DNA from: an uncultured Bacilli bacterium
GTDB taxonomy: Bacteria > Bacillota_I > Bacilli_A > RF39 > UBA660
NCBI GenBank assembly: GCA_934087065.1
Contig: CAKOIS010000005.1
Location: 2,789-66,788 of the forward strand
Reading direction: 5' to 3'
Length of the DNA: 64,000 nt
Shown: positions 11,076 to 54,417 of the stretch, piece after piece
How the letters are laid out: every line of letters begins with the position of its first letter
Position numbering within the stretch: the first letter of the stretch is position 1
Made by a program: the position numbers and the translations under genes
The notes under the pieces: generated by a model
What the model was told of the DNA's origin: nothing
Databases searched by the model: none
The model's input: the letters and a program-made list of their open reading frames with translations, nothing else

Positions 11076-12038
11076 ATGGGAAAAGTTAAGTATGTATTTC
11101 TAACAATTTTATCTATATTCTTTATAACTGCTTGTAGTTGTAGTAAAATAACTTACACTGTTACATATGACACTGATGGTGGAACTAAAGTAAGTAAAGA
11201 AATAGTAGAAAAAGGAGAAAAAGCAACTGTACCAGTTGACCCAACTAAAGATGGTTACACATTTATTGGTTGGTACCTAGAAGACGAAAAGTATGACTTT
11301 AATAGTGAAGTAACAAAAGACATCACATTAAAAGCAAAATGGGAAAAGAAAGCTGATACAACTGGTGATGATTCAAAAGAAGATAATGATAAAAATGATA
11401 CTAAAGTAACGTATACTTATTATAAAGTGACTTTTGACTCTAATGGTGGAAGTAGTATTCCTAATAGATTTGTCATAAAAGGTATGAGTACAAATAAACC
11501 AGTTGATCCAACTAGAGAAGGATATACTTTTGTTGGTTGGGTATATAACGACGAAATTTTTGATTTTTCTAGCAAAATATACAAAAACATCACACTAAAA
11601 GCTATTTGGGAAAAAGTTGTAACTGAAAAAACTTACACAGTTAAATTTGACACAGATGGTGGAAGTGCAATAAAAGATATAATTGTTAAAGAAAATACTA
11701 AAATTAAAAGTCCAGGCAACCCAGTTAAAGAACACTATAAATTCCTAGGTTGGTTTGTTAACGACATTGAATTTGACTTTAACAATGTAATTACAAGTGA
11801 CATTACATTAAAAGCTAAATGGGAATACGTTCCAACAATTAGTTACATCAAAGAAGACATTAAAACTTCTGTAGTTGATCAAGTCGTAATCTATGTAACT
11901 AAAGATGATGTTAAAGTTGATGGATACGTTACAATTACAACTACTACAGGTAAAACAAAAACTGTGTCTGTCCCTAGTAGTGGTTACATAACAAATGGAA
12001 AAATAATAAAAGAAATAACAGACGCAAAAATTAAATAA
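11076..12038 (+). CDS. lipoprotein with three Listeria-Bacteroides (Flg_new-type) repeats
   Basis: Signal peptide with lipobox 'FITAC'. Three ~75-aa repeats 'TYTVTYDTDGG...GYTFIGWY...DITLKAKWEK'. Confidence 0.65.
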   Translation: MGKVKYVFLTILSIFFITACSCSKITYTVTYDTDGGTKVSKEIVEKGEKATVPVDPTKDGYTFIGWYLEDEKYDFNSEVTKDITLKAKWEKKADTTGDDSKEDNDKNDTKVTYTYYKVTFDSNGGSSIPNRFVIKGMSTNKPVDPTREGYTFVGWVYNDEIFDFSSKIYKNITLKAIWEKVVTEKTYTVKFDTDGGSAIKDIIVKENTKIKSPGNPVKEHYKFLGWFVNDIEFDFNNVITSDITLKAKWEYVPTISYIKEDIKTSVVDQVVIYVTKDDVKVDGYVTITTTTGKTKTVSVPSSGYITNGKIIKEITDAKIK

Positions 12039-12052
12039 GAAAGGACAAAAAA

Positions 12053-14674
12053 ATGAACAAAATTAAAAAGATATTATTTACTTTAGTTTTATCTTTATTG
12101 TTTGTTGTTAATACTGATGCAATTATAAAAGAAGACCCTGCTAATTTTACTGAAGACACTTATATAATTGGTATAACTAAGTTTGATAAAAACATCACAG
12201 TAAATGCATCAATGGCTAATCAAGCTGGAATAGATTATGCTAGTTTTATGCAAAGTATCAATAACGATGATTTAACAAGTGATGTGTATTTTTATAGTAA
12301 ACTAACTGATGAGTGGTTTAAAATAAGTAAAAACACAAATGAATATAAATTGTTAAATGAAAATGAAAAAGAAGAATTAATAAATAATTTAAATATTTTC
12401 TATGTAAATAATGAAGAAAAAACTACAACTTTAGATTATAATGGAAATGTTTCTAAAATAAGTAATTCTAAAGTTAAGTTTGAAAATAATAAGTTTATTA
12501 TACCAGTAACTTTATTAAATTTTAATTTTACAACTATAGATGACATTACGCTTGATGTTGATTTAGCAAAAGATAAAGATGGTATTAATAACTATGGTGA
12601 ATATTATATTCCTTATATAGTAAGCTATTATGATGAAGAACAAAACTTAATTGGGACAATTAAAACTAACAAAGATGGTTCTTTAAATTTAAGTAATTTT
12701 ACTATTCCTACTAAAGATGGTTACAAGCATGAATTTGTTAATAATGAAGGAAATGTAGTAGACATCAACACTTTAGTAGTAAGTGATAACCTTACTAAAA
12801 TCTATGATAAATGGACAAAAGTTGGAAGTTTAATGGAAAACAATGTTAGTATATTTGATAAAGACAGTCTTACATTAAAATATACTGGCTTAATTGATAG
12901 AAGAGATAACTCTAACTATATATATGTAACAATAGTCGCACCTATAAACTTTGATACAACTAATACTTTAGTAAATGGTGAAAGTGTTAAATGGATAAGT
13001 GGCGTTAAAAATACTGCCGAAATCAAGCTTGATGTTAAAGACAAGTCTAGTCAAAAAATTACTGTTAAATGGGACGATATTGACACAACTACATTTACAG
13101 TAGATTTAAGTGAAAGCAAGTTTAGTTATCTTATCACTTATAAAGAAGGAAACATTACTAAAAATGTAGGATTTATAACAGAAGGCGAAAAACTAAGTAA
13201 TATTTATGAATATACTAAAAAAGGTAAAATATTTGTAGGACTAACTACTATTAAAAATGGTAGAGTAAAATTTGATACTAATACTCCTATTACAAAAGAT
13301 TATACATTCTATCCAATTTACATAACTCCAGTATTAAGTTACAATAATGAAGTAACTAAAGAAGTTGAATACGCTTTTGTAAATGGAGAAGAAAGCAATC
13401 AAATATTTAAACTAAATTATCAAAAAGTGACAAGTGGTAAATTTAAACTTGTTGTTGAATTTAACGATACTAATGCTGTATATGACGAAAATGATTATAT
13501 AAAAGCAAAAATTAATGATAAATGGGTAGACTTTAAGGATGGTGTTATATTTGACGTAAACGAAAAAGGTTATACCGAAATACCTTTCAAAGTCAAAATG
13601 ACTAATAACACATCTACTAGTTATAAGTATTCAATTTATTATAATGATAAACTAGTACTATCTAAAACTATAGTTAACGGTCTAACTAGTGAAGAAAACT
13701 TAACTTTAAGTATTGGGAAACACAAATTCACTAATACAAAAGCAAGTAAAATAATGAAATATGGAACAGCAGAAACTCCAGTAAAACTACTAAAAGATGT
13801 AACATTAACTGGTGTAGCCGGTATATCAGGAAATTCTTATATTGATTTAAATGGATTTACTTTAACAAGTGGAAAAAGTAACAGTATATTTGAATTTTCT
13901 ACAACTATTGCTACAAATGATAATAGTTTAAACATATATAATGGTAATCTAAATTTAGTAAGTACTAAAAAAGACACTTATGTTGTCAATGGTGGCAAAA
14001 AGTCTGGAAAAGGCAAGTTCACTTTAACAATGACTAATGTTGAAGTTACTTCAAATAACGAAACATTCTACATGGCTGGAACTAACAGTAAAATAGAATT
14101 AAATAATGTTACAGTTAATTCTAAAAATAATGCATTCTTTATTGAAGGAAAGAATCCTGTAGTTGTTATTAATGATAGTAAACTAATTACTGATCAAGTT
14201 GCAATTTATACCAATGGTAGTACATCAAGTGATACAAATATTACTTTAGATAATTCTGATATTGTATCAAAAAGTATGGGTATATATCAAGCTTCAAGTG
14301 GAGTGCTTACTATATCTAATAATTCTAGTGTAACTGGTACAACTGGTATAGGACTAAAAAGTGGACAACTTAATGTATTAAATTCAACTATCGTTGGTAA
14401 TGGTACTTCTGTTGAAACTCCACAAGTAGAAAATAGTGGTATATCTGATACAGGAGATGCTATCTACGTTGAAGTTAACAGTGGATACCAAAGTGTAACT
14501 AAAGAGAATAGTGATATTTCTATTAGTGTTACTAATAGTGAACTAACAAGTAAAGCTAATAATTCAATAAGAGTATTTAACCCTGAAGAAATAACTGGTA
14601 CAATAGTACTAGCAAATGACTACAACATATTCGCTGAAAACACAGAAGGAAAATTTTATACACTTAATAAATAG
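12053..14674 (+). CDS. large secreted protein (873 aa), N-terminal signal peptide, C-terminal beta-helix-like repeats
   Basis: Signal peptide 'LVLSLLFVVNTDA'. C-terminal third rich in N/S/T/G repeats typical of right-handed beta-helix / pectate-lyase-like folds. Confidence 0.55.
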   Translation: MNKIKKILFTLVLSLLFVVNTDAIIKEDPANFTEDTYIIGITKFDKNITVNASMANQAGIDYASFMQSINNDDLTSDVYFYSKLTDEWFKISKNTNEYKLLNENEKEELINNLNIFYVNNEEKTTTLDYNGNVSKISNSKVKFENNKFIIPVTLLNFNFTTIDDITLDVDLAKDKDGINNYGEYYIPYIVSYYDEEQNLIGTIKTNKDGSLNLSNFTIPTKDGYKHEFVNNEGNVVDINTLVVSDNLTKIYDKWTKVGSLMENNVSIFDKDSLTLKYTGLIDRRDNSNYIYVTIVAPINFDTTNTLVNGESVKWISGVKNTAEIKLDVKDKSSQKITVKWDDIDTTTFTVDLSESKFSYLITYKEGNITKNVGFITEGEKLSNIYEYTKKGKIFVGLTTIKNGRVKFDTNTPITKDYTFYPIYITPVLSYNNEVTKEVEYAFVNGEESNQIFKLNYQKVTSGKFKLVVEFNDTNAVYDENDYIKAKINDKWVDFKDGVIFDVNEKGYTEIPFKVKMTNNTSTSYKYSIYYNDKLVLSKTIVNGLTSEENLTLSIGKHKFTNTKASKIMKYGTAETPVKLLKDVTLTGVAGISGNSYIDLNGFTLTSGKSNSIFEFSTTIATNDNSLNIYNGNLNLVSTKKDTYVVNGGKKSGKGKFTLTMTNVEVTSNNETFYMAGTNSKIELNNVTVNSKNNAFFIEGKNPVVVINDSKLITDQVAIYTNGSTSSDTNITLDNSDIVSKSMGIYQASSGVLTISNNSSVTGTTGIGLKSGQLNVLNSTIVGNGTSVETPQVENSGISDTGDAIYVEVNSGYQSVTKENSDISISVTNSELTSKANNSIRVFNPEEITGTIVLANDYNIFAENTEGKFYTLNK

Positions 14675-14696
14675 AGACTTAAGGTCTCTTTTATTA
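14673..14696 (+). terminator. rho-independent terminator
   Basis: agagac/gtctct stem then TTTTATT. Confidence 0.5.
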
Positions 14697-14697
14697 T

Positions 14698-14726
14698 TTG
14701 ACAAAAAGTGCGTTTTATGGTACAAT
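14698..14726 (+). promoter_or_regulatory. promoter TTGACA-17-TGgTACAAT
   Basis: Near-consensus with extended -10, upstream of HExxH paralog B. Confidence 0.55.
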
Positions 14727-14750
14727 TAATTTAGTTAAGGGGGAACGTAT

Positions 14751-15584
14751 ATGTTAGATAAAGAAGTGTTAGAGTTATTTTGTGAGCAAATGAATAATGC
14801 CAGCATCTTTAATAGAGTATTTATAGAAAAATTAACAAGTCTGTTAAAACAAAGTAAATACTTTGAAAATTTAAACCCTATACTATTTAAAAAAACAAAC
14901 TTTTTAACTGAAGCTGACACCTTTGATAATGAAATAACTATGCACCCAGAAATAATCAACGCAAGTTATCAAAACTCTTTAGATAAATATGGTATTCTTA
15001 ATGATACTTTATTTACAAGGAACATCTATAGAACTATTTCTCTACTACATGAACTTACTCATGTATATCAGTTTAACTTAGAAATGAACGAAATTAAAAA
15101 AGTATATCTAGAGTGTCTAAAAGTAAAAGAAGGATACGTTTTAATGAACAACAATCTAGATAAATTAATAGTCAAACTTCTTAACAAGCTAAATCTAAAA
15201 ACACAAAGTGAATTATATGTAGCTTTAAAGTCTTACGGTTTATACATGAAAAATCATGATATGTTTCCAATTGAAAAAATGGCAGATGGGTATGCTTATA
15301 AATATTTGATAGAAATATATCACATGCTAGGAAAGGAATACTTTAAAGATTTTGATAGTTTCTTAGACATAATGATTTATCATATTATAAAAGATTACTA
15401 CCAAGAAGGTGATTTAGTTAGTACACCATATAATAGATTTTTAACTTTAATTAAAAGACATGGATACACTTTTAAAGACATAAATATACAAAACATAAAT
15501 GCATACGATAGACTACTTATTGGAATGGAAGAAGATAAAAATACTATAAATAATATAATAAATACTAAAATATTAAGGAAATAA
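14751..15584 (+). CDS. hypothetical HExxH-motif protein, paralog B
   Basis: 'LLHELTHVYQF' and 'FPIEKMADGYAYKYL' match paralog A motifs. SD AGGGGG. Confidence 0.5.
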   Translation: MLDKEVLELFCEQMNNASIFNRVFIEKLTSLLKQSKYFENLNPILFKKTNFLTEADTFDNEITMHPEIINASYQNSLDKYGILNDTLFTRNIYRTISLLHELTHVYQFNLEMNEIKKVYLECLKVKEGYVLMNNNLDKLIVKLLNKLNLKTQSELYVALKSYGLYMKNHDMFPIEKMADGYAYKYLIEIYHMLGKEYFKDFDSFLDIMIYHIIKDYYQEGDLVSTPYNRFLTLIKRHGYTFKDINIQNINAYDRLLIGMEEDKNTINNIINTKILRK

Positions 15585-15828: not shown

Positions 15829-16386
15829 ATGTTTAATGTAAATGATATTAAAAATGGAATGACTATTAGTTATGAAGGTAATATATATCAAGTAGTTGAG
15901 TTTCAACATGTAAAACCAGGTAAAGGTAGTGCATTTGTCAAAACTAAATTAAAGAATTTAAGAACACAAACTACACAAGAAATTACTTTCAACGCTGGTA
16001 TTAAACTTGAAAAAGCAAATGTTGTAAAAAACGATTTAAGTTATTTATATAGTCAAGGAGACTCTTATGTATTTATGGATAATAATACTTATGATCAAAT
16101 TGAAATAAATAAGAGCAAGCTAGGCGATAATGCTAAATTCTTAAAAGAAGGATTAGTAGTTAATGTAATGAATTACAATGGAGAAATTGTTGGAGTAACT
16201 TTCCCAGATAAAATTAGCTATAAAGTTGTTGAAACTGAACAAGCAGTTAAAGGAAACACTACAAGTGGAGCTCAAAAAGATGCTACATTAGAAACAGGAT
16301 ATACTGTTAAAGTTCCTTTATTCATTGAAGCTGGAGAAGAAATAATTATTACTACTAGTGATGGTAAATATTCAAGTAGAGCATAA
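15829..16386 (+). CDS. efp: elongation factor P
   Basis: 185 aa. Conserved 'KPGKGSAFV' loop containing the modified Lys. Confidence 0.9.
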   Translation: MFNVNDIKNGMTISYEGNIYQVVEFQHVKPGKGSAFVKTKLKNLRTQTTQEITFNAGIKLEKANVVKNDLSYLYSQGDSYVFMDNNTYDQIEINKSKLGDNAKFLKEGLVVNVMNYNGEIVGVTFPDKISYKVVETEQAVKGNTTSGAQKDATLETGYTVKVPLFIEAGEEIIITTSDGKYSSRA

Positions 16387-16398
16387 AAGCTCTTTTTT
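16378..16398 (+). terminator. efp terminator
   Basis: agagc/gctct stem then T6. Confidence 0.5.
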
Positions 16399-16401
16399 GT
16401 G

Positions 16402-16430
16402 TTGAATTTTTATATAATTTATGTTATCAT
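16402..16430 (+). promoter_or_regulatory. promoter TTGAAT-17-TGtTATCAT for leader / paralog copy 1
   Basis: Same architecture and spacing relative to the conserved 'aaagatagg' box as at copies 2 and 3. Confidence 0.45.
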
Positions 16431-16440
16431 TTTAATGTAA

Positions 16441-16610
16441 TAAAGATAGGAGATAAACATATGAAAGATACATTTTTAGTACAAAGTAAACTACAAAATG
16501 GGGGGGGTTATTTAAGTAAAGTAAATAACTTAAGTTTTCATATGTCTAAATATAATGGATAGAATAAGTCTACCCATTTTTTGTTGTGTAAGAAAGAAGG
16601 AGTATGATTT
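16441..16610 (+). promoter_or_regulatory. conserved leader, copy 1: SD + leader ORF (16461-16562, 33 aa) containing G8 tract (16500-16507) + terminator hairpin (16555-16583) + SD of main gene
   Basis: Leader ORF MKDTFLVQSKLQNGGGYLSKVNNLSFHMSKYNG*. Its TAG stop lies in the 5' arm (atggatag) of the hairpin atggatag/ctacccat, which is followed by TTTTTT. Homologous leaders at 36215-36393 and 47098-47272. Confidence 0.55.
16500..16507 (+). repeat. poly-G homopolymer (G8) inside leader ORF
   Basis: Read directly from the sequence. G-runs of 8 or more are otherwise absent from this 30% GC window. Confidence 0.9.
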
Positions 16611-18257
16611 ATGAATAAGAAGAGTATAACAATATTAGTAGTGTGTTTAATAGTGACTGTGTTGTCAGTCAGTTTAGCATACTATAGTGCTAGAATAATA
16701 GGTGATGGGAAAAACGTAAGCGTGAATGCAAAAGAGCTTACAATAAACTTTGACAATAATAACGAAATAGCGAGTGGTATAATTGAACCAGGTTGGAGTA
16801 GTTCTAATACTTTTAGTGTTACTAATAAAAGTAAAACTAACTTTACATATGATATTGTATTAAAGAACTATAAAAATACTACTAAGACTAATGGATACCT
16901 AGTTTATAAAATAACTAGTACAAATGGTTACAATATGACTGAATATAAAGATATGCCAAAAGATGGAGATAATACATATGACCTAGTAATTGCTAGAGGC
17001 ATAACTATTGAACCAGGAAGTAGTAATAAACAAAGTTATACTTTAGAAATAAAATACCTAGATAGCACTGAAGACCAAAGTATAGATATGGGGTCAACTG
17101 TTACAGGTAGTTTATATATAGTAGAAAGTACAACAAACGAAAATAACCCATATACTAAAGGAACATTAGGTTATCAAATAATGGAAGATAACTCAAATAT
17201 TAAAACTAGAACAGATTTTAGTAAAACCTACACAGATGTAAATATTGGAACAATGTATAAAGCACAAGAAGAAAATACTGACGTTTATTATTTTGCAGGA
17301 GATGCAAGAAACAACTGGGTTAAATTTGGAACATGGAAGGAAGATAAAACCATAATAGTTGGATATTACGACACATCAGCTTTTCAGGGCAAACTTTATG
17401 ATACGTTAGAAGAATGTAATACGGCTAGTTCATATAATAAAAATTGTCACTCAGTTACATTGGCTAAAAAAGGAAATGCAATGTACTGGAGAATAATTCG
17501 TACAAATAATGATGGAAGCATAAGACTATTATACGCAGGGACTAATCCGTATGGTAATGAAGCATATGTAAATATAAGTGTATATAATTCTCCATATAAT
17601 AACCCTATGTATGTAGGCTATATGTATGGAACATTAGGCTCTTTGGAAAATAATAGACAAAACACAACAGATAGTTCGGTTAAATCAGCAATTGATAATT
17701 GGTATGTAAATAACATGACATCATATACAAAATATTTAAGCACAAGTGCAGTATATTGTAATGACCGTAGCATACCAAATTCAGACTATAACACTGATAA
17801 AACAGGTTTTAATTATAATTCAGTGTATAGGTTAAATACTAACAAAACTCCAACATATAATTGCGAAAGCGAATATGACGCTTTTAGTGTAGAAAATGCA
17901 AATGCTAAACTAACTTACCCAATAGCCTTAATGACAGCAGACGAAATTGCATATGCAGGTGGTTTACACAACACTCGTTCTGAAACGTGGGTATATAAAA
18001 GTGCTGTACTTAATTCTGACAATGAAAATATTATAAGTGCAACAGGAATTACAAGGTGGTGGACAATGAGCCCTGGAATTTGGGAAGGAACAATATCTAG
18101 AACATATTTTTTAAACACTGTAGCTTGGCCAGGACATTTAAGTACGCAATATATTAATTATGGATATGGTGTAAGACCAGTAATAAGTATAAATAGAAAT
18201 AACATATGGAAAAGTGGAGATGGAAGCGTAGAACATCCATATGAAATTAGTAATTGA
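16611..18257 (+). CDS. secreted paralog family member 1 (548 aa); SipW-cognate-like signal peptide, TasA/camelysin-like N-terminal region
   Basis: N-terminus 'MNKKSITILVVCLIVTVLSVSLAYYSARIIGDGKNVSV...IEPGWSSSNTFSV'. Conserved C-terminal block shared with copy 3 ('WRIIRTN.DGS.RLLY.GT', 'YPIALMTADE', 'VRP'). Confidence 0.6.
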   Translation: MNKKSITILVVCLIVTVLSVSLAYYSARIIGDGKNVSVNAKELTINFDNNNEIASGIIEPGWSSSNTFSVTNKSKTNFTYDIVLKNYKNTTKTNGYLVYKITSTNGYNMTEYKDMPKDGDNTYDLVIARGITIEPGSSNKQSYTLEIKYLDSTEDQSIDMGSTVTGSLYIVESTTNENNPYTKGTLGYQIMEDNSNIKTRTDFSKTYTDVNIGTMYKAQEENTDVYYFAGDARNNWVKFGTWKEDKTIIVGYYDTSAFQGKLYDTLEECNTASSYNKNCHSVTLAKKGNAMYWRIIRTNNDGSIRLLYAGTNPYGNEAYVNISVYNSPYNNPMYVGYMYGTLGSLENNRQNTTDSSVKSAIDNWYVNNMTSYTKYLSTSAVYCNDRSIPNSDYNTDKTGFNYNSVYRLNTNKTPTYNCESEYDAFSVENANAKLTYPIALMTADEIAYAGGLHNTRSETWVYKSAVLNSDNENIISATGITRWWTMSPGIWEGTISRTYFLNTVAWPGHLSTQYINYGYGVRPVISINRNNIWKSGDGSVEHPYEISN

Positions 18258-22498: not shown

Positions 22499-22695
22499 GA
22501 CTAGTTTTTATTCTTTTTTTTATGGAATTTTTTTTAACAGATTTTAAAAAATGATAACAATTAATATCTGAAATTGTATTTAATTTATTACAATTGTAGT
22601 TAATAAGGTTCAAAAATGTATAACAATTTTTAAAATCTGTAAATTTGACAGTACTTTTAATATATGATAAATTTAGGAAGAAAGGAGAAGATAGA

Positions 22696-23256
22696 ATGAC
22701 TAGTTATATCATGGAAAAGTCTTTGGCTGATAGAATAGATGATGTTCTAAAAAACATATATGAAAGAAATCCTGTGAGATTAAAAAATAACACGCCAGAT
22801 GTATTAGTTGATAATGGAGTGAAAAATTTACCGATGTATGAAAATCCATCTCACGTAAGAAAAAATATTTTGACAGAACAAGAAGCTAGAAATTTAGGAA
22901 TTACAGTAAATTCAAGAGATCATTATCATGGCTTAGGAAAAGATTTATATATAAAAATAATTATAGCTTTAGATGATCCGAGAGTAATATTTAAAAATAA
23001 AAACGAAAAAGATTATTTAATTCTAACAACAATTAAGGACAAAAACAAAAATAATGTGCTAGTACCAATAGAAATAGAAACAGGCACAACTGTCAATAAA
23101 ATCACAATTGAAATAAATAGAATTAAAAGTGTGTATGGATATAATATAAAAAAACCAAACCTTAACAGTTTTATAAAATATAATATTAAAAATGGAATTT
23201 TTAAAAAGATATATGAAAAAAAAGAACTAAGTACGGGCAATAGCAACCGCAGTTAG
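22696..23256 (+). CDS. hypothetical protein (186 aa)
   Basis: AAAGGAG SD then ATG 22696. Preceded by candidate promoter TTGACA-17/18-(A)TAAAT and a tacaattgta palindrome at ~22580-22680. Confidence 0.45.
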   Translation: MTSYIMEKSLADRIDDVLKNIYERNPVRLKNNTPDVLVDNGVKNLPMYENPSHVRKNILTEQEARNLGITVNSRDHYHGLGKDLYIKIIIALDDPRVIFKNKNEKDYLILTTIKDKNKNNVLVPIEIETGTTVNKITIEINRIKSVYGYNIKKPNLNSFIKYNIKNGIFKKIYEKKELSTGNSNRS

Positions 23257-23398
23257 TCCTTCTGATAGATAATTTATCACTTTATAACGCTAATGTCAAC
23301 AAAAAAAATGAAATACTGAATGCAAATGTGAAAATTTAGTTGTTTGAAATCAGTAATGATAATGTATAAATTTATTACGAAAGGAAAGGAGAGAATAA

Positions 23399-24349
23399 AT
23401 GAATTACTATAATGAAATAAAAAATATTTTAATAGATAATGCAATTGGAAGAAAGGTAAGAGAATATAAAAGTAATCAAAAAGACTTAGAAAGTTACTAT
23501 AACGTGGGAAAACTTTTGGTTGAAGCACAAGGTGGAGAAGAAAGGGCTAAGTATGGAGATGGTTTGATTAAAGAATATTCTAAGAGACTTACTAGTGAAC
23601 TTGGTAAGGGTTATTCTGCAAGGTCTTTAGCAAATATGAGGTCATATTACTTGTTAACACAAAAATTGCAGCCATTGGCTGCAAAATTTAGTGCTTCAAA
23701 TATAACGTGGTCAAACTTATGCGAAATATTAAATTTAAAGGATATAAACAAAATAAAGTATTACTTAAATTTATCTGGGAGATACAATTTAACAAAAAGA
23801 GAATTGAAAAATAAAATTAAATCAAAAGAGTATGAAAGACTTGATAGTAAAATTAAAGAAAAATTAGTAAAACAGGAAGAAGTTCCAGTAAAAGATAAAA
23901 TACCAGACCCGATAGTATTGGAAGGTTTAGAATATAAAGAAAGACTTACTGAAAAGATGGTACAGAAATGGATAGACGAAAACCCAGCTTCATTTTGTAA
24001 GTCATTGGGTGAAGGTTATTCTTATATAGAAAGCCAATATAAAATTAAAATAGGTTCAAATTATAACTATATAGATATATTACTATTTAATTACATATCT
24101 AATTCATTTGTAGTAGTAGAGATAAAAGCAACAGAACTCAAGAAAGAACATATAGGACAAATAGAAACTTACATGAATTACGTTGATGTTAATCTAAAGA
24201 AAGACTTTCACAATAAGACAACAGGGATACTTTTAGTTAGAGAAAATAATAAATGGCTAATAAAATACATAAATAATGATGGAATATTAGTAAGAAACTA
24301 CATAACAAGTGACGAGCAAGTTAGTGAATGTTTAGGAGGTTTAAAATGA
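23399..24349 (+). CDS. YhcG/DUF1016-family protein with C-terminal PD-(D/E)XK nuclease-like core
   Basis: 316 aa. N-terminal 'NYYNEIKNIL...YYNVGKLLVE' domain. C-terminal 'FVVVEIKATELKKEHIGQIETYM' E-x-K motif. Confidence 0.6.
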   Translation: MNYYNEIKNILIDNAIGRKVREYKSNQKDLESYYNVGKLLVEAQGGEERAKYGDGLIKEYSKRLTSELGKGYSARSLANMRSYYLLTQKLQPLAAKFSASNITWSNLCEILNLKDINKIKYYLNLSGRYNLTKRELKNKIKSKEYERLDSKIKEKLVKQEEVPVKDKIPDPIVLEGLEYKERLTEKMVQKWIDENPASFCKSLGEGYSYIESQYKIKIGSNYNYIDILLFNYISNSFVVVEIKATELKKEHIGQIETYMNYVDVNLKKDFHNKTTGILLVRENNKWLIKYINNDGILVRNYITSDEQVSECLGGLK

Positions 24350-24903
24350 ATTATTACAATGAAATAAAGAATATACTAGTAGATAATGCAATTGAAAGAA
24401 AAGTAAGAGAATACAAAAGTAATCAAAAAGACTTAGAAAGTTACTATAACGTGGGAAAACTTTTAGTAGAAGCACAGGGTGGAGAAGAAAGAGCAAAGTA
24501 TGGAGATGGACTTATTAAAGAGTATTCTAAGAGACTTACAACTGAACTTGGAAATGGATATTCAACCAGAAATCTAAAATATATGAGAAATTTTTACATT
24601 GTTTGCCAAAAACGGCAATCACTGATTGCCGAATTCAAGTTTCACAATATTTCTTGGACATGTATTACAAAATTGTTGAAATTAGACGATATTAATGCAA
24701 TATTCTATTATGTTAAATGTATTGGTAAAATGAATTTAACTACAAGAGAGTTAGATTTAAAATTAAAATCAAAAGAATATGAAAGACTTGATAGTAAAAT
24801 TAAAGAAAAATTAGTGAAACAGGAAGAAGTTTCAATAAAAGATAAAATACCAGACCCGATAGTATTGGAAGGTTTAGAATATAAAGAAAGACTTTCACAA
24901 TAA
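24346..24903 (+). pseudogene. truncated tandem duplicate of the YhcG/DUF1016 gene (260-bp internal deletion, frameshift)
   Basis: Starts on the ATGA overlap with copy 1's stop. 5' 160 nt and 3' tail nearly identical to copy 1; middle diverged. Deletion junction at direct repeat aaagaaagactt (23936-23947 vs 24196-24207) causes an immediate stop (KERLSQ*). 24904-25032 is the noncoding remnant of the copy-1 3' end. Confidence 0.6.
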
Positions 24904-25032
24904 GACAACAGGGATACTTTTAGTTAGAGAAAACAACAAATGGCTAATAAAATACATAAATAATGATGGGATATTAGTAAGAAACTACATAACAAGTGAC
25001 GAGCAAGTTAGTGAATATTCAGGAGGGTTAAA

Positions 25033-25197
25033 ATGAATTATTATATTATAATGAAAGAATGGTTTATTAGATTTATAGAAGAGCAAAGAAAAGGATACTT
25101 TATAAGAATATTAAAATATTTAATTATCCAAAACTTGCAGTCAATAGCTTTCAAATTCAAAAGCTTTAATTATATATTACAAATTGTAACGAGTTAG
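25033..25197 (+). pseudogene. third, further-degraded fragment of the same gene start (MNYY...)
   Basis: Begins with the same 'ggagg(g/t)ttaaaATGAATTATTA' junction; rest diverged. Confidence 0.35.
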
Positions 25198-35941: not shown

Positions 35942-35969
35942 TTGACAACTTCTTTATTTCTGCTATAAT
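35942..35969 (+). promoter_or_regulatory. promoter TTGACA-16-TGcTATAAT
   Basis: Consensus hexamers with extended -10. Confidence 0.55.
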
Positions 35970-35992
35970 TAAATCATAAAGGAGTGTTATGT

Positions 35993-36160
35993 ATGAAGAA
36001 AAACGAAATATGTCTAGACAAAGTAATATTAAAAGAAATACAACAAATAGAAAAAGATATGAAAGAAGCAGCAGAAGAAGTAAGAAAGATAGAAAACCAC
36101 GAAGGCAACTATAAAGTTTATGACGATGTTAAAAGCTTTATGGAAGATTTGTCTAAGTAA
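35993..36160 (+). CDS. hypothetical 55-aa protein
   Basis: AAAGGAG SD 8 nt upstream. MKKNEICLDKVILKEIQQIEKDMKEAAEEVRKIENHEGNYKVYDDVKSFMEDLSK. Below ORF-track cutoff. Confidence 0.4.
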   Translation: MKKNEICLDKVILKEIQQIEKDMKEAAEEVRKIENHEGNYKVYDDVKSFMEDLSK

Positions 36161-36182: not shown

Positions 36183-36212
36183 TTGACAAGGCTCACTAAA
36201 AAATGCTAAAAT
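36183..36212 (+). promoter_or_regulatory. promoter TTGACA-18-TGcTAAAAT for leader / paralog copy 2
   Basis: Sequence match to consensus. Confidence 0.5.
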
Positions 36213-36214
36213 TT

Positions 36215-36393
36215 AAGAGTAAAAAGATAGGAGAAGATATATATGGAATCTAACTCTTTAGTACAAAATGAAGTACAAATGGGGGGGGGTATTTAGTTTA
36301 GTAAATACCACTAGTTTTCATATACTTTTAATGAGATAGAATATTTTTCTATCTCTTTTTCGTGTCTTTAAAAAGAAGGGAGAGCATAAAATT
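36215..36393 (+). promoter_or_regulatory. conserved leader, copy 2: leader ORF 36243-36296 (MESNSLVQNEVQMGGGI*) with G9 tract 36281-36289; terminator 36333-36360
   Basis: Perfect 9-bp stem gagatagaa/ttctatctc then TTTTT. With G9 the leader ORF stops 37 nt upstream of the hairpin. Confidence 0.55.
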
Positions 36394-37689
36394 ATGCATA
36401 ACAAACAATTAACATTAGTTGTAGTAAGCCTTTTAGTAGTAGTACTAAGTGTATCACTAGCATGGTTTACAACACAAATATTGGGAAAGGGGAAAGACGT
36501 AAGTGTAAGTAGTGCTAACTTACAAATAATATTTACAGATAGTGACGGTGCTTTATCAGCAAATGATATAGAACCAGGATGGAGTGCAACAAAAACATTC
36601 ACTGTACAAAACAATAGTAAAGAAGAATACAAATACAATATTATTATAAAAGATTTGGTAAACACATTTGTAACAAACGGATACTTACAATACAAGATAA
36701 CTAGTACAAACGATGGATATAATATGACAGAGTATAAGGATATACCAAAATCTAGTACAGCTAAAGATATAATACTTGCTTATAGTGTATCTATACCAAA
36801 GGGAGAAACTCAAACATACACAATAGAATTTAAGTATGCAAATGACGAAAGCAAAGACCAAAGTGTAGATATGAATAAGAAACTGAGTGGAACTTTATTT
36901 ATAACAGAAGGAATAGAAGAACCAAAATCACTTGCAACATTAATACAAACAAATGCTATAAATGAAAATGGATATAGATATGAAGGAACAGACCCAAATA
37001 ACTATATACAAATGGAGAAGACTGATGGCACAACAGAAATATGGAGAATAATAGGGTTATTCCCAGATGGAGAAAATGGAGAAGATGTAATAAGAGTAAG
37101 AAAAGTAGAATATGAGAGTGCTCCTTATGACTCAAATGATACAAACCATTGGCCAAATACAACGCTATATACATATTTAAAAGATACATATTCATTAACA
37201 AATTATAAAAACACAGTAAACTATAAAATGTACTTAGGTGGTGCAAGTAGTATATCAAGTTATACATCACAAGACTTATATGATATGGAAAGAATGTTAA
37301 ATAGTAAAGGAACAGCAGGAAAAACATCACAAAATAGTTATTCTAGCACAACAACATTTACAGGAAGTGTAGGACTAATGTATCCAAGCGATTATGGGTG
37401 CGCTGTACTAGCAAGTGACTGTGCAAGAACAATCACGCCTGAAAAATATACTGAACCAGCAGCATGCCACGATAACAACTGGTTATTCCAAGGTTCAAAT
37501 ATTCGACAATGGTTAATAAGCCCAGGCGTCTCTTTTAATAATTATGCGTTCATTGTCCATGCTAATGGGTATGCCACTCACATGTACATCGTAACTGTTT
37601 CCGTCTCTTATAGCCCAGTTATGGCTCTAAAGTCCGATGTAATCGTAACAGGAAGTGGTACACAAAGTGACCCATATGTAATGAATTAA
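36394..37689 (+). CDS. secreted paralog family member 2 (431 aa)
   Basis: N-terminus 'MHNKQLTLVVVSLLVVVLSVSLAWFTTQILGKGKDVSV...IEPGWSATKTFTV', about 65% identical to copy 3 over the first ~175 aa. Divergent C-terminal half. Confidence 0.6.
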   Translation: MHNKQLTLVVVSLLVVVLSVSLAWFTTQILGKGKDVSVSSANLQIIFTDSDGALSANDIEPGWSATKTFTVQNNSKEEYKYNIIIKDLVNTFVTNGYLQYKITSTNDGYNMTEYKDIPKSSTAKDIILAYSVSIPKGETQTYTIEFKYANDESKDQSVDMNKKLSGTLFITEGIEEPKSLATLIQTNAINENGYRYEGTDPNNYIQMEKTDGTTEIWRIIGLFPDGENGEDVIRVRKVEYESAPYDSNDTNHWPNTTLYTYLKDTYSLTNYKNTVNYKMYLGGASSISSYTSQDLYDMERMLNSKGTAGKTSQNSYSSTTTFTGSVGLMYPSDYGCAVLASDCARTITPEKYTEPAACHDNNWLFQGSNIRQWLISPGVSFNNYAFIVHANGYATHMYIVTVSVSYSPVMALKSDVIVTGSGTQSDPYVMN

Positions 37690-45597: not shown

Positions 45598-46293
45598 ATG
45601 AATGAGGTATTAAGTAAAAATAATTATAGGAAGTTATTAGTGGAAAATGAAGTAACCGTTTTTAATAATGAAGAAGAAGTTACTTTTAATGCTGATAATA
45701 AAGAGAAAGAAGAAGTAGTTGATTTCTTTCTAAGAAACCATAGAGTTAATGTTATGAAAGTAGGTTTAAAAGACTATACTTTTACATCTGCTAGTGCTTG
45801 TATAGATAATTATAATAAAAACTTAGTTAATCTTATAAGTGATGCTAGTATGAAGTTAGGTATTAGTACAAACATATCATTAAAGATAAAAGCTATTAAA
45901 AAGTTTTATAACGATAGATTATATAGTTTATATAAGAGCAATGCTAACAAAGTAAGAATAGTAATGGGTTATAACACATCAAAATATATTACTTTATTTG
46001 ATAAACTATTAATAGAAGTACTAAATAACAAATTAGATTTATCTTTTATATATGAATATATTTCTAGCTTAACAAAAGGAGATAAATTAGAAATCAAATA
46101 TAAAGAAATATATTGGTTTCCACTTGAACCAGATAGAACTAGAGGGTACAGTAACATGCCTTACATAACAGGTTTAACAAAAGTAGTAGAGTTTGATAAC
46201 ATATTACTACCTTATATGGAAAGACTAGTTAACGAATATAATAGTGAATTAAATAAATTTAATACGTTACAATTTAAACTAAAAGAATTTTAA
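45598..46293 (+). CDS. hypothetical protein (231 aa)
   Basis: ORF with GAGGT SD. Confidence 0.4.
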   Translation: MNEVLSKNNYRKLLVENEVTVFNNEEEVTFNADNKEKEEVVDFFLRNHRVNVMKVGLKDYTFTSASACIDNYNKNLVNLISDASMKLGISTNISLKIKAIKKFYNDRLYSLYKSNANKVRIVMGYNTSKYITLFDKLLIEVLNNKLDLSFIYEYISSLTKGDKLEIKYKEIYWFPLEPDRTRGYSNMPYITGLTKVVEFDNILLPYMERLVNEYNSELNKFNTLQFKLKEF

Positions 46294-47061: not shown

Positions 47062-47090
47062 TTGAAAAATAGTACTTTTTTTGATAAGAT
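47062..47090 (+). promoter_or_regulatory. promoter TTGAAA-17-TGaTAAGAT for leader / paralog copy 3
   Basis: Same spacing to the 'aaagatagg' box as copy 1. Confidence 0.45.
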
Positions 47091-47097
47091 TATCTTG

Positions 47098-47272
47098 TAA
47101 TAAAGATAGGAAGTGAAGTACATGAAAATTAACTCTTTGGTACAAAATAAAGTACAAAATGGGGGGGGGTTATTTAAATAGTATAAATAACTATAGTTTT
47201 TCATGTGCAATTAAATGGATAGAATAACTCTACCCATTTTTTCGTGTCTTAAAAAGAAAGGAGAACATTAAT
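47098..47272 (+). promoter_or_regulatory. conserved leader, copy 3: leader ORF 47122-47181 (MKINSLVQNKVQNGGGLFK*) with G9 tract 47161-47169; terminator 47215-47243
   Basis: Hairpin atggatag/ctacccat + T6 identical to copy 1. In the G8 frame the ORF would read ...GGGYLNSINNYSFSCAIKWIE*, similar to the copy-1 leader peptide, and would end inside the hairpin. Confidence 0.55.
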
Positions 47273-48754
47273 ATGCAAAAGAAAAAATTAACACTTGTAA
47301 TAGTAAGCTTACTTGTAGTAGTACTAAGTGTATCACTAGCTTACTTTACAGCACAAATAATAGGAAAGGGTAAAAATGTAAGTGTAACAAGTGCTAACTT
47401 ACAAATAGTATTTACAGATAGTGATGGAGCTTTAACAGAAACTGGTATAGAACCAGGGTGGCAAAAAACTAAAACTTTTACTATTAAAAATGATACTAAG
47501 ACAGAATACAAGTATAATATAGTAATAAAAGACTTGTTAAATACTTTTGTAACTAATGGATACTTACAATATAAGATAACTAGTACAAATAATGGATATA
47601 ATATGACTGAGTTTAAAGATATTCCAAAGTCAAGTGCACCTAAAGATAAAATACTAGCTTATAGTGTTAGTATTCCAGTAGGAGTAACACAAAGTTATAC
47701 TATTGAATTTAAGTATGCAAACGATGAAAGTGTAGACCAAAGTGATGATATGGGTAAGAAACTAAGTGGAACACTATTTATAACTGAAGGAACAGAAGAT
47801 CCAAACAAAACACTTTTAACTCAATTATTTGCAGACAAATCAACAGTATTAACAAGAACAGACTTTAGTACAGTATTAACAACAGATAATACAAAAACAT
47901 TATATACGGGAACAGAGAATGGAACAACAGTATACTATTTTGCAGGGAATGCAACAGATAACTGGGTAAAGTTTGGAAAGAATGCAAGTAATGAAGACTT
48001 ATACTGGAGAATAATAAGAACAAACTCAGATGGTAGTGTAAGACTTTTATACCATGGAACAAGTACAACAGCAACAGACGCATATATAGGGACATCAGCA
48101 TTTAATAGTAGTAATAATGATATAGCATATGTAAGCTATATGTATGGAAATTTAGGAAGTGTTGCAAATGCTAGAGAAAATACAACTAACAGTACAATAA
48201 AAACAATAATAGATAACTGGTATAAAGATAATTTGAATACAAATTATGGTAAATACCTAAGTACAACAGCAGTATACTGTAACGATAGAAGTACATCAGA
48301 TAATGCATCCTTTGGAGCACGTACAAGACTACAAACAAATAAAACACCAACATATGACTGTTCAGTAGCAGAAGACAAATTCACAGTAGACACAAGTACA
48401 GGAAATGGGAAACTAACATACCCAATAGCATTAATGACAGCAGACGAAGTAAGTTTTGCAGGTGGAGTATGGATAGTAAATGCACCTACATGGTATTATA
48501 AAAATAGTGCAAACGAAAGCTCTACAGACTCAACCTGGTGGTGGTTGTTGTCTCCTCGCGGTTGGTATGACAGCGTCGCTTACGTGTTCTACGTGTCCGG
48601 TTCGTCCAAACCTGGCTACTTGTACGACAACAGCGTCAACTACACCACCCGTGTGCGTCCAGCCCTATCACTAAAATCTTGTGTTAAATATGCAAATGGA
48701 GATGGCTCAGCAAGCGCACCATACACAATAAAAGAAACTTCAAGTGGGTGCTAA
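47273..48754 (+). CDS. secreted paralog family member 3 (493 aa)
   Basis: N-terminus 'MQKKKLTLVIVSLLVVVLSVSLAYFTAQIIGKGKNVSV'. Central/C-terminal block homologous to copy 1. GC3-rich patch at ~48553-48666. Confidence 0.6.
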   Translation: MQKKKLTLVIVSLLVVVLSVSLAYFTAQIIGKGKNVSVTSANLQIVFTDSDGALTETGIEPGWQKTKTFTIKNDTKTEYKYNIVIKDLLNTFVTNGYLQYKITSTNNGYNMTEFKDIPKSSAPKDKILAYSVSIPVGVTQSYTIEFKYANDESVDQSDDMGKKLSGTLFITEGTEDPNKTLLTQLFADKSTVLTRTDFSTVLTTDNTKTLYTGTENGTTVYYFAGNATDNWVKFGKNASNEDLYWRIIRTNSDGSVRLLYHGTSTTATDAYIGTSAFNSSNNDIAYVSYMYGNLGSVANARENTTNSTIKTIIDNWYKDNLNTNYGKYLSTTAVYCNDRSTSDNASFGARTRLQTNKTPTYDCSVAEDKFTVDTSTGNGKLTYPIALMTADEVSFAGGVWIVNAPTWYYKNSANESSTDSTWWWLLSPRGWYDSVAYVFYVSGSSKPGYLYDNSVNYTTRVRPALSLKSCVKYANGDGSASAPYTIKETSSGC

Positions 48755-53868: not shown

Positions 53869-53921
53869 ATAAGTGATGAAATGCTGTTTTAAGTTTAAAT
53901 TAAAGACTTATTGATTAAAAT

Positions 53922-54306
53922 AACTTGAAGTTTCAATTTGAAACTTCAAGTTTTGTAATTGTGCAAAAGTCGCATTATAATTTACAATGTGAATGTTAAA
54001 GAACTAGTTATGAAATATGCTAAAATATATTCAAACTTGAAGTCACAAATTGTGACTTCAAGTTGTAATAAAGCCAAGATACAAAGCATGACAATTATTT
54101 GAAAAAGCGCATAAAACTGTAAGTTTTAAAGATTTTTTTTAAATAAAAAAGTTCAAACTTGAAGTCACAATTTGTGACTTCAAGTTTGATAACATAATAT
54201 AAAAAATATAACAGTTATTAAAAAAGCAACGTAAAATCGTAAGCTTTAATAGAATTTTTAAACCGAAAAAGTGAAAACTTGAAGTTTCAAATTGAAACTT
54301 CAAGTT
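53922..54306. repeat. tandem array of four 31-33-bp perfect palindromes (AAACTTGAAGT[ttcaa|cacaa]N[ttgaa|ttgtg]ACTTCAAGTTT) at ~112-122-bp periodicity; inter-palindrome segments related
   Basis: Palindromes at 53922-53952, 54034-54064, 54156-54186, 54276-54306. Each is a perfect inverted repeat around one central nt. Spacers share 'aaaag(c/t)gcaTaaaa..gtaag.tttaa'. Confidence 0.85.
53953..53981 (+). promoter_or_regulatory. promoter TTGTAA-17-TATAAT abutting palindrome 1
   Basis: -35 starts at the nt after the palindrome. Confidence 0.4.
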
Positions 54307-54344
54307 TGTTACTTAAAAAATTACGAAAAAAGACAAACAATTAG

Positions 54345-54373
54345 TTGACAAACGAACGAGCATTTGTTAAAAT
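54345..54373 (+). promoter_or_regulatory. promoter TTGACA-17-TGtTAAAAT for the ORF6N-domain gene
   Basis: Consensus. Confidence 0.55.
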
Positions 54374-54417
54374 AAAAGTGTAGTTACAAAATAAATAAAG
54401 AAAAGGAGGTTTTGATA

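Follow-up and report, generated by a model that had tools for sequence, protein, structure and literature searches.

A Putative Frame-Switch Leader Precedes a Family of TasA-like Secreted Proteins with DUF6273-like Domains in Uncultured Gut Bacilli

Three Paralogous Genes and the Extent of Their Family

The DNA analyzed here is a stretch of 64,000 nucleotides (nt) from an uncultured Bacilli bacterium (NCBI GenBank assembly GCA_934087065.1, contig CAKOIS010000005.1, positions 2,789 to 66,788 of the forward strand), which is called the window throughout and has a GC content of 28.8%. It harbors three paralogous genes, p1, p2 and p3, which encode secreted proteins with a common N-terminal part and are each preceded by a leader that contains a run of guanines (poly-G). 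An original prediction, made by a model from the letters of the window, had described three open reading frames (ORFs) as a dispersed family of secreted proteins with TasA/camelysin-like N-termini and variable C-termini, and all three ORFs were confirmed, all on the + strand, as given below with their lengths in amino acids (aa).

16611..18257, + strand: p1 coding sequence, 548 aa; signal peptide at residues 1–23, TasA-like beta-sandwich to residue ~176, then a DUF6273-like C-terminal domain
36394..37689, + strand: p2 coding sequence, 431 aa; signal peptide and N-terminal domain as in p1 and p3, with a shorter, divergent DUF6273-like C-terminal domain
47273..48754, + strand: p3 coding sequence, 493 aa

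All of the motifs quoted in the prediction were found in the proteins, namely SLAYY/SLAWF/SLAYF, II/ILG(D/K)GK(N/D)VSV, IEPGW(S/Q), WRIIRTN.DGS.RLLY and YPIALMTADE. The common part of p1–p3 comprises the signal peptide and a beta-sandwich of ~150 aa, and across the first ~180 aa the identity to p3 is 78% for p2 and 50% for p1, a family resemblance that far exceeds chance. More than 7,800 homologs of p1–p3 were obtained (90% database), and a profile of the N-terminal domain (N-domain) collected 2,877 cluster representatives at 50% identity, in which the domain always occupies residues 1–175 of proteins between 116 and 1,300 aa in length. Stand-alone versions of the N-domain, 170–200 aa in length, are also present in the family, and their size appears to match that of fibre subunits. 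The family carries no name in the source databases.

The description as a three-member family holds for the window only and not for the genome, because a 345,830-bp Hadza contig with a 98% ortholog of p3 holds two further members (860 and 859 aa). The search for additional paralogs that the prediction had proposed thus found them both on this contig and in the metagenome-assembled genome (MAG) UBA11492, which has 10 loci. Identical sequences of p1 and p3 occur on Hadza and other human-gut metagenome contigs, and the nearest named genomes are 'Clostridium sp. CAG:628', the Bacillota MAG UBA11492 and several 'uncultured Bacilli' MAGs; p1–p3 belong to a large secreted surface-protein family that is found in uncultured gut Bacilli of low GC content related to 'Clostridium sp. 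CAG:628'.

The family genes stand singly among housekeeping genes (efp, rpoC, obg, polC and cdaA), with no phage genes near them. The placement of p2 directly after rpoC had to be corrected, because an acidic ORF of 58 aa (35984–36160) intervenes between the two. This ORF follows the rpoC terminator and precedes the p2 leader, and its TG-extended sigma-70 promoter at 35942–35969 matches the consensus perfectly (12/12). A conserved tail, ...(S/T)(S/T)GC or NSC(N/K), with a terminal or near-terminal cysteine, was observed in p3 (48740–48751 of the window) and in many of its relatives, while p1 and p2 are without it.

Profile and Structural Evidence on the N-Terminal Domain

The N-terminal part of p3 was divided into three segments, for which the structural model described below was also used; its local confidence is given as the predicted local distance difference test score (pLDDT).

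47273..47341, + strand: p3 signal peptide, residues 1–23, with helix 4–18 in the model and predicted cleavage after the invariant Ala23 (SLA↓YF)
47342..47395, + strand: p3 residues 24–41, conserved in sequence, pLDDT <50 in the monomer model; candidate donor strand
47396..47797, + strand: p3 N-terminal beta-sandwich, residues 42–175, TasA/camelysin-like

The proposed TasA/camelysin-like N-terminus was borne out through the relatives of p1–p3, which match Peptidase_M73, BsaA and TasA models, while the window proteins themselves stay below the thresholds of these families. The profile searches that the prediction had suggested, with a gathering cut-off of 22.5 bits for Peptidase_M73 (PF12389) and of 19 bits for TIGR04088, thus gave a divided outcome, in which neither profile recognized p1–p3 and PF12389 was passed by the homolog P0122 (44% identical, full length) with 30.0 bits over residues 2–75. 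A total of 119 N-domain representatives yielded 21 M73 matches at E ≤ 1e-3 (best E 5.5e-10), 10 matches to the BsaA model TIGR04090 and six to the TasA model NF046066. For TIGR04088, divergent relatives scored only 9.9–11.7 bits and one of the 119 representatives reached E 0.0028; a SipW-cognate resemblance, (S/T)(L/Y/F)A(Y/W)F, is visible at the signal end of p1–p3, but it is sub-threshold. More divergent members carry G(V/T)(S/T)(Y/F)AYF(S/T/K), which is essentially the signal-peptide end of camelysin and TasA. Since the relatives score and the window proteins do not, the kinship of p1–p3 with M73 holds by transitivity and not directly. No unrelated family claimed the N-terminus in the profile searches, and neither this outcome nor a lack of further paralogs and of a signal peptidase partner, the two results that the prediction had named as speaking against it, was encountered.

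An hhalign comparison of the family profile with TasA gave E 1.4e-4 and a probability of 52%, with family residues 19–86 aligned to TasA residues 14–79. The TasA query sequence was verified against PDB 8AUR (E 5e-151). The alignment places S(Y/L)A↓YF of the family over TWA↓AF of TasA, with Ala23 opposite the −1 Ala of TasA, and Ala23 is invariant or nearly so across all family alignments. Cleavage of p1–p3 is predicted after Ala23, since 8AUR starts at Ala28 (A27↓A28 in the aligned TasA). We regard the N-domain, on these sequence comparisons, as remotely homologous to the TasA/camelysin/BsaA matrix-fibre subunits. A type IV pilin-type signal was also considered and rejected, as no G↓FTLxE motif is present.

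An AlphaFold2 (AF2) model of p3 based on an alignment of 150 sequences attained a pLDDT of 90.9 and a predicted template modeling score (pTM) of 0.80, while a model with only the three paralogs as alignment attained a pLDDT of 39 and was not used. The model contains helix 4–18, a beta-sandwich at residues 43–172 and a large mixed C-terminal domain at residues 181–493, and residues 19–41 have a pLDDT <50 despite their sequence conservation. The donor strand of TasA folds only in the polymer (PMC9674648), and by analogy residues 24–41 of p3 are a candidate for such a segment, which would act as a donor strand. A Foldseek search of the PDB returned only weak beta-sandwich matches (E ~1e-3), with the TasA fibre 8aur at rank 6, the TasA-like archaeal pilin AbpA (7ueg) at rank 13, and CFA/I pilins as well; this picture is consistent with TasA kinship, yet it is not discriminating.

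The earlier observation that no SipW gene is visible in the window was confirmed, with no S26 peptidase of any kind found in the 64 kb; a weak SipS-like match at 45598–46293 was rejected on a Pfam check. The proposed search for a sipW homologue led to a related organism rather than to this genome. A gut metagenome contig (L040, ORNF01006942), which surfaced among the gut contigs collected via the leader hairpin pattern described below, encodes a 191-aa peptidase that passes TIGR02228 with 75.2 bits against a cut-off of 51.85 bits and also matches the Bacillus SipW model. At positions 617–1619 of L040 the SipW-type gene is followed by a gene for a 154-aa TasA-like protein (NSFAWF), and then by a leader and a family gene. 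Because the L040 gene passes TIGR02228, a SipW partner exists in the lineage, and from the alignment with TasA the putative site of cleavage by SipW would be A23↓Y24. The L040 contig has a coverage of 2.8x, and its family gene is broken by frameshifts and followed by an insertion sequence (IS) element.

The best surviving alternative, which we still consider unlikely, is that p1–p3 are ordinary Sec-dependent surface or secreted binding proteins with a signal peptidase I (SPase I) signal or an uncleaved anchor, in which the sandwich would be a stalk and neither SipW nor polymerisation would be involved. The window proteins do fall under all TasA, M73 and TIGR04088 thresholds, but the M73 gathering score is reached among relatives that have this domain, and so are matches to the BsaA and TasA models. 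S-L-A satisfies the −3/−1 rule of a standard SPase I signal, but the TasA alignment runs in register over the cleavage site with an invariant Ala at −1, and though the window yielded no SipW gene, the family gene on L040 has sipW and a small TasA-like gene as its neighbors. The helix 4–18 is clean in the AF2 model and could serve as an anchor, and the Foldseek match to TasA equals those to many other beta-sandwiches; on the other side, the stretch that follows the cleavage site is conserved although the monomer model leaves it unstructured, and the stand-alone N-domains of 170–200 aa have the size of fibre subunits.

A Conserved Leader with a Poly-G Tract Upstream of Each Gene

Alignment of the upstream regions revealed a conserved leader before all three genes, in which a promoter, AAAGATAGGAG, a short upstream ORF (uORF) containing a G tract, a hairpin with a U-run and the ribosome-binding site (RBS) of the gene itself follow one another.

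Leader of p1
16402..16430, + strand: promoter, TTGAAT-17-TATCAT, TG-extended; position conserved upstream of all leaders
16461..16562, + strand: uORF of 33 aa in the long frame; stop TAG at 16560–16562, in the 5′ arm of the hairpin
16500..16507, + strand: G8 tract inside the uORF
16554..16582, + strand: terminator-like hairpin, AUGGAUAGA / UCUACCCAU, with one A.C mismatch, then U6 at 16577–16582

Leader of p2
36183..36212, + strand: promoter, TTGACA-18-TAAAAT, 11/12 consensus positions, TG-extended
36243..36296, + strand: uORF of 17 aa in a short frame; G8 or G11 would give 31–32 aa reaching into the hairpin
36281..36289, + strand: G9 tract inside the uORF
36331..36360, + strand: hairpin, GAGAUAGA / UCUAUCUC, perfect pairing, then U5 at 36356–36360; flagged by the terminator scan

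Leader of p3
47062..47090, + strand: promoter, TTGAAA-17-TAAGAT, TG-extended
47122..47181, + strand: uORF of 19 aa in a short frame; G8 or G11 would give 34–35 aa
47161..47169, + strand: G9 tract inside the uORF
47214..47242, + strand: hairpin with one A.C mismatch, then U6 at 47237–47242

The three tracts of G8, G9 and G9 are the only runs of at least seven G or seven C in the 64 kb, where 0.22 would be expected. The ATG of the uORF is preceded by a Shine-Dalgarno sequence at a spacing of 7–8 nt in the window leaders (AGGAG, 8 nt upstream, in that of p1), and a 33-aa gene was called at the position of the p1 uORF on contig L023 likewise. In the window leaders, tracts of G8 or G11 give peptides of 31–35 aa that end in the hairpin, and tracts of G7, G9 or G10 give peptides of 17–19 aa; the long-frame peptide of p3 would end in ...KWIE, with its stop within the hairpin loop. 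The G8 tract thus puts p1 in the long frame, and the G9 tracts put p2 and p3 in short ones.

An Rfam search of the leader returned nothing at either the gathering or the E ≤ 1 threshold, and the known RNA families detected in the window consist of one tRNA and one L10 leader. The −35 element of the leader lies in or just after the terminator hairpin of the preceding gene (window 16378–16430; L131:2780-3000 and L132:2780-3000), and because of this overlap or abutment the portable unit appears to include an insulating upstream terminator. Single-sequence folding predicted long-range pairings of the Shine-Dalgarno sequence and start of the uORF with the sequence after the U-run and with the UUUUCAUG block, and these were rejected, as they are not conserved in other leader subtypes. 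A pairing of the poly-G tract, as antiterminator, with the 3′ arm (AAAAUGGG / CCCAUUUU) fits p1 and p3 and not p2, and it is speculation.

Frame Architecture and Length Polymorphism across Gut Metagenomes

A total of 102 gut-metagenome loci were obtained by an exact-pattern scan for the leader hairpin. Within 1.28 Mb of related sequence, 96 of the 99 runs of at least seven G are leader-associated. The tract lengths, which were taken from assemblies rather than reads, so that errors of +/-1 are possible, range from 5 to 12 over ~100 assemblies from several studies, with G9 (n = 44), G8 (n = 25) and G10 (n = 17) being the commonest. Among clusters of near-identical alleles (≤6 mismatches over ~330 nt), the tract length differs in five of nine, and interrupted or lost tracts as well as in-frame 3-nt differences also occur among the leaders.

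A uORF led by a Shine-Dalgarno sequence is open into the tract in 88 of 90 leaders, which represent three sequence subtypes. In 84 of the 85 unique leaders exactly one of the frames after the tract reaches the hairpin and ends 7 or 12 nt into the pattern, and the two remaining frames stop 28–45 nt before the hairpin. The metagenome leaders are in the long frame in 35 cases and in a short frame in 53, a ratio close to the one-third expected under free switching. Eight of the nine alleles in which the tract has been lost have the long frame, which suggests that the long frame is the functional ON state. The hairpin variants retain pairing (GGAUAGA/UCUACCC, GGAUAGA/UCUAUCC and GAGAUAGA/UCUAUCUC), and RNAalifold retained the terminal hairpin only.

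The genes behind the leaders are family genes in 84 of 94 cases, a gene for a protein of 80–86 aa in seven and a gene for another secreted protein (MNFMKKKMSLIILL...) in three. By eye, the 80–86-aa protein (L043, L045, L094, L102, L106, L038 and L054) resembles a helix-turn-helix regulator of the XRE type, and if it is one, a phase-variable regulon would be possible. Distant family members (L001, L006, L009, L012, L014, L015, L017, L025 and L026) have ordinary promoters and no leader, so the leader is a lineage-specific add-on. Seven MAG contigs (L002, L003, L005, L010, L011, L013 and L016) end in the leader or in the 5′ end of a family gene, and the leader is masked by runs of N in four (L004, L020, L021 and L022); together with the conserved N-terminal coding region, the leader behaves as a dispersed repeat that breaks assemblies.

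That the G tract acts otherwise than via the frame of the uORF, through spacing to a second promoter (TTTTCA-16-TAGAAT), RNA pairing or transcriptional slippage, with the uORF being incidental, appears improbable to us. Poly-G tracts 5′ of genes can modulate promoters, as in the case of Treponema pallidum tpr, which speaks for such a role, and a promoter-like site with 9/12 matches lies over the conserved block and hairpin in all three leaders, but 9/12 promoter matches are no commoner there than in shuffled sequence. In minimum free energy folds, a CUCUU that lies upstream binds part of the G run, and the leaders of p2 and p3 are strongly structured (z ~-4.5), but the long-range pairings are not conserved in MTNN-type leaders. 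The layout of one long and two short frames seen in 84 of 85 leaders is not what a spacing model would lead one to expect. A Shine-Dalgarno-led uORF open into the tract throughout three subtypes (88 of 90) and tract-less alleles locked in the long frame (8/9) also speak against an incidental uORF.

We give very little credence to the view that there is no phase variation, with the tract differences being homopolymer sequencing or assembly errors and the leader a fixed cis-regulatory RNA. In its favor, errors are common in homopolymer lengths, the data consist entirely of assembled contigs, some with low coverage, and contigs frequently break at leaders. Against it, lengths of 5–12 were found over ~100 assemblies that are independent and come from several studies, in-frame differences of 3 nt occur alongside tracts that are interrupted or lost, a three-frame stop architecture would be purposeless unless the frame changes, and runs of at least seven G are otherwise almost absent from these genomes of 29% GC.

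The C-Terminal Domain and the Variable Region of p3

The C-terminal part of p3 holds a domain and, within it, a region with the features of targets of diversity-generating retroelements (DGRs).

47813..48751, + strand: p3 C-terminal DUF6273-like domain, from a Pfam match of 23.6 bits and fold comparison
48539..48660, + strand: DGR-type variable region in p3, 122 nt, 56% GC; 0/43 invariant columns are A; NNC/NNT codons

The match of p3 to DUF6273 (PF19789) is barely over the gathering cut-off (23.6 against 23.5 bits) and covers profile positions 110–172 only; among the relatives, L003 scored 23.7 bits and P0121 and P0123 scored 37–38 bits. No DUF6273 profile match was obtained for p1 and p2, though both align with p3. 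The C-terminal half of p2, which had been described as different, proved to be a shorter and divergent homolog, with collinear BLASTP matches at E 2e-6 and 0.007. Compared with viral models (BFVD), the fold of the C-terminal domain matched DUF6273 proteins of gut phages best (E 1.8e-4 to 1.3e-3, probability 1.00, ~290 aligned columns, TM up to 0.58). DUF6273 has been reported as a C-type-lectin fold with a DGR variable region at its C-terminal end (PMC10743442, PMC11792537), and the C-type-lectin label is used here after PMC10743442.

The contig L001 carries a p2-type module in tandem behind a p1/p3-type module, and family members elsewhere carry two or three C-terminal modules. Across the wider N-domain family, other C-terminal partners are LRR_5, Flg_new (Listeria-Bacteroides repeats), Laminin_G_3 and Gp10_C. 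As the partners vary behind a shared N-domain, the family combines a constant TasA-like front with exchangeable binding modules. The DUF6273 modules of the p1–p3 family, of which a protein has one or two, probably bind a ligand.

Among 117 orthologs of p3, variability peaks at residues 421–460, with 1.0–1.4 bits against 0.07–0.5 bits elsewhere, and in these residues the third codon position varies less than the first two, opposite to the rest of the gene. The corresponding stretch, 48539–48660, has a GC content of 56% against 31% in the rest of the p3 gene and is the sole 120-nt stretch with at least 50% GC in the window. Across 16 alleles, none of its 43 invariant columns is an adenine, against 45% adenine among the invariant columns elsewhere in the gene. 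Judged from these patterns, the region bears the signature of adenine-specific DGR mutagenesis, at the position reported for the variable region of DUF6273. In the window it is confined to p3, with p1 and p2 being without it, and at least four paralogs in UBA11492 have a variable region of this type. The ideas of individually gated expression and of adhesive variation in the original prediction gained support here, each copy having its own poly-G/uORF/hairpin leader with a tract that varies between alleles and p3 having a hypervariable lectin loop.

An origin of p1–p3 as prophage-derived receptor-binding or tail proteins rather than cellular adhesins is hardly credible, since the presence of DUF6273 domains as DGR targets in Faecalibacterium and crAss-like phages (from the literature), the BFVD DUF6273 proteins as best fold matches of the C-terminal domain and the phage domain Gp10_C in some family members are countered by N-terminal signal peptides on all copies, single copies among efp, rpoC, obg, polC and cdaA with no phage genes near, a PHROG search without matches and an IMG/VR search without matches to the variable-region scaffold.

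Proposed Mechanism and Its Standing

The explanation that we propose starts from what is established, which is the family with its homology links, the anatomy of the leader, the frame architecture, the tract-length polymorphism between alleles and the adenine-free variable region. Each gene would be driven by a portable module of ~230 nt, consisting of a sigma-A-type promoter, a uORF with G8–G10, a hairpin with a U-run and the RBS of the gene itself. Slipped-strand changes in the G tract would shift the uORF among three frames. In the long frame (G8 or G11 here), the ribosome would occupy the 5′ arm of the hairpin and block termination, as in pyrBI, and the gene would be ON; in the short frames the ribosome would stop 28–45 nt upstream, the hairpin would form, transcription would end and the gene would be OFF. 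Under this mechanism p1 would be ON in the window, and p2 and p3 would be OFF. The role of the hairpin as a terminator, the relief of termination by translation, the direction of the switch and the existence of a cognate DGR are what we infer. If the analogy with TasA holds, the N-domain would form donor-strand fibres, insert into them or attach to a fibre of small TasA-like subunits, and the lectin-like head would then be displayed, which would make p1–p3 two-domain adhesins. The incorporation of the p1–p3 proteins into fibres is likewise suggested by analogy. Taken as a whole, the explanation of p1–p3 as a family of TasA-like lectin adhesins with a SipW-type signal, a frame-switch leader and, in p3-type copies, a DGR variable region is the one we favor, with confidence a little above even.

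Several results weigh against it. On the side of the N-domain, p1, p2 and p3 gave no match at E ≤ 1 to Peptidase_M73 (PF12389) or TIGR04088, a profile search of PDB sequences returned nothing at E ≤ 1, the Foldseek comparison with TasA (E ~2e-3, TM 0.27) is no better than that with other beta-sandwiches, and homology to TasA is documented for the first ~75 residues only. Searches for S26/SipW in the window with the motif regex SGSM.P, with phmmer using SipW and SipS sequences and with phmmer using the L040 protein were all negative, a SipW gene is absent from the loci L001–L026 too, and the SipW of L040 comes from a related organism. On the side of the leader, the consensus fold of the hairpin is weak (~-7 kcal/mol), the hairpins of p1 and p3 were left unflagged by the terminator scan because of the A.C mismatch, covariation is limited because the loci were collected by exact hairpin match, and the assembled tract lengths carry the uncertainty given above. 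The RNA polymerase of Bacillus subtilis outruns the ribosome, and transcription and translation are reported to be loosely coupled in Bacillus, which would disfavor ribosome-dependent antitermination; this point and the weak stem are the main objections to the switch mechanism. Finally, the window gave no sign of a reverse transcriptase, a template repeat or a downstream hairpin, and searches of 1.34 Mb of related loci and of IMG/VR turned up neither a reverse transcriptase nor a template repeat; scaffold-based searches of the loci and of IMG/VR returned other variable regions or chance GC-rich matches only. The retroelement itself therefore stays hypothetical.

A full-text literature search found no description of a poly-G/uORF/hairpin switch, which is absence of evidence only. 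At the protein level, the family has a new architecture made of known kinds of parts, with a DUF6273 lectin-like head added to TasA/SipW biology, and the poly-G/uORF/hairpin leader is the newest element. We tentatively propose, with rather less than even confidence, an undescribed phase switch in which a homopolymer in a leader peptide gates a terminator, together with TasA-type SipW-dependent fibre adhesins with exchangeable heads, partly diversified by a DGR. The original prediction had called such a system unexpected in an organism that looks like a spore-forming Firmicute. TasA/SipW systems are typical of spore-forming Firmicutes, and this part of the system is therefore not unexpected here.

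Stochastic surface variation in the gut is known mainly from the invertible promoters of Bacteroides and from pathogens, and an uncultured gut Firmicute with a small genome appears to stack a multigene family, a homopolymer switch and retroelement-type hypermutation. If the proposal is true, a frameshift controls a downstream gene without damage to its coding sequence, which would be a new ON/OFF design, and a portable module drives many TasA-like lectin adhesin genes and a small XRE-type regulator; these would also be the first TasA-type SipW-dependent fibre components with exchangeable binding heads, and surface variation of three kinds would be layered on a single protein family of a common human-gut bacterium. 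Other genomes could be searched for the switch as a succession of poly-G tract, short uORF and hairpin. The fusions of the N-domain, in a family of 2,877 clusters, to lectin, LRR and other binding modules point to a wide use of TasA-type fibres, or of SipW-dependent secretion, as a platform for adhesin display, a role that would change the view of biofilm-matrix proteins. For metagenomics, the repeated leaders break assemblies, and apparent frameshifts and variable sites are open to misreading by pipelines.

Other Features of the Window and Related Contigs

Upstream of efp and p1, the region 11076–15584 encodes a 320-aa protein with Listeria-Bacteroides repeats (internalin-like) and proteins of 873 aa and 277 aa, the latter two having no Pfam or NCBIfam match; the region may be a further surface-protein cluster. 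A variable island after lepA (22645–25055) contains a MuF_C fragment and a tandemly duplicated DUF1016/YhcG PDDEXK nuclease gene, the duplicates of which (23397–24349 and 24344–25055) are 80–93% identical, and the contig L023, which is near-identical to the window, runs into ABC transporter genes at the position of this island. Four to five copies of a ~42-nt palindrome (AACTTGAAGT..CAA.TTG..ACTTCAAGTT) with a spacing of ~120 nt were observed at 53912–54656, in and beside the intergenic region before the ORF at 54412. One family member from a related genus has a gene for YqfD (stage IV sporulation) in its vicinity (L025:2059-3219), which fits the impression of a spore-former lineage.

Comparison with Known Systems

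The family was compared with TasA, CalY (camelysin) and BsaA together with SipW from Bacillus and Clostridium perfringens, and with the archaeal AbpA bundling pili. As in TasA, CalY and BsaA, (S/T)(Y/F/W)A↓(A/Y)F closes the signal peptide; the alignment with TasA also stays in register over the first strands and the PG(D/W)..K.F.(V/F).N motif, and relatives of p1–p3 match PF12389, TIGR04090 and NF046066. As in TasA/SipW systems, a SipW-type gene and a small TasA-like gene adjoin one family member (L040), and the residues that follow the cleavage site take no ordered structure in the monomer model, as would be expected of a donor strand (PMC9674648). Unlike TasA, the beta-sandwich of the family spans ~135 aa instead of ~210 aa and the N-domain continues into one, two or three large binding modules on its C-terminal side; unlike the tapA-sipW-tasA operon, the family genes are dispersed singly; and unlike TasA and camelysin, the window proteins lie below all family thresholds.

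The targets of DGRs, such as the phage protein Mtd, tentaclins and those of a Faecalibacterium prophage (PMC10743442, PMC11792537), resemble p3 in having a DUF6273-like domain with a C-terminal variable region, and hypervariable NNC/NNT codons within an adenine-free, GC-rich scaffold are shared with them as well. Unlike the phage targets, p3 is chromosomal, bears a signal peptide and has a TasA-like N-domain, and unlike in described DGR systems, no reverse transcriptase or template repeat was located for p3 and only p3-type paralogs carry the variable region.

FimH is a two-domain tip adhesin of fimbriae, and type 1 fimbriae are phase-variable through the invertible element fimS. The family proteins would resemble FimH, by analogy and not by homology, in joining a lectin-type domain to a pilin-like one, which a donor strand could complete, under stochastic ON/OFF control; they differ in the reversed order of the domains, in having no chaperone-usher system and in a uORF homopolymer taking the place of fimS.

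Slipped-strand contingency loci are known from Campylobacter and Neisseria, with poly-G/C tracts within ORFs, and from porA, opc, fim and tpr, with tracts in promoters. The leaders share with them a long G run in an AT-rich genome, a position 5′ of surface genes, the presence of several copies and length polymorphism between near-identical alleles. Unlike in these loci, the tract of the leader lies in a separate uORF, in neither the structural gene nor the promoter, and the frame sets the position of the stop relative to the hairpin.

In Escherichia coli pyrBI, translation of the leader through the attenuator suppresses termination, and Clostridioides difficile cwpV has a terminator-based phase switch. 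As in these two systems, a hairpin with a U-run lies just 5′ of the gene, with the stop of the leader ORF inside the hairpin, and hairpin formation is proposed to decide between ON and OFF, whereas the input would be a heritable frameshift in place of the nucleotide supply of pyrBI or the DNA inversion of cwpV.

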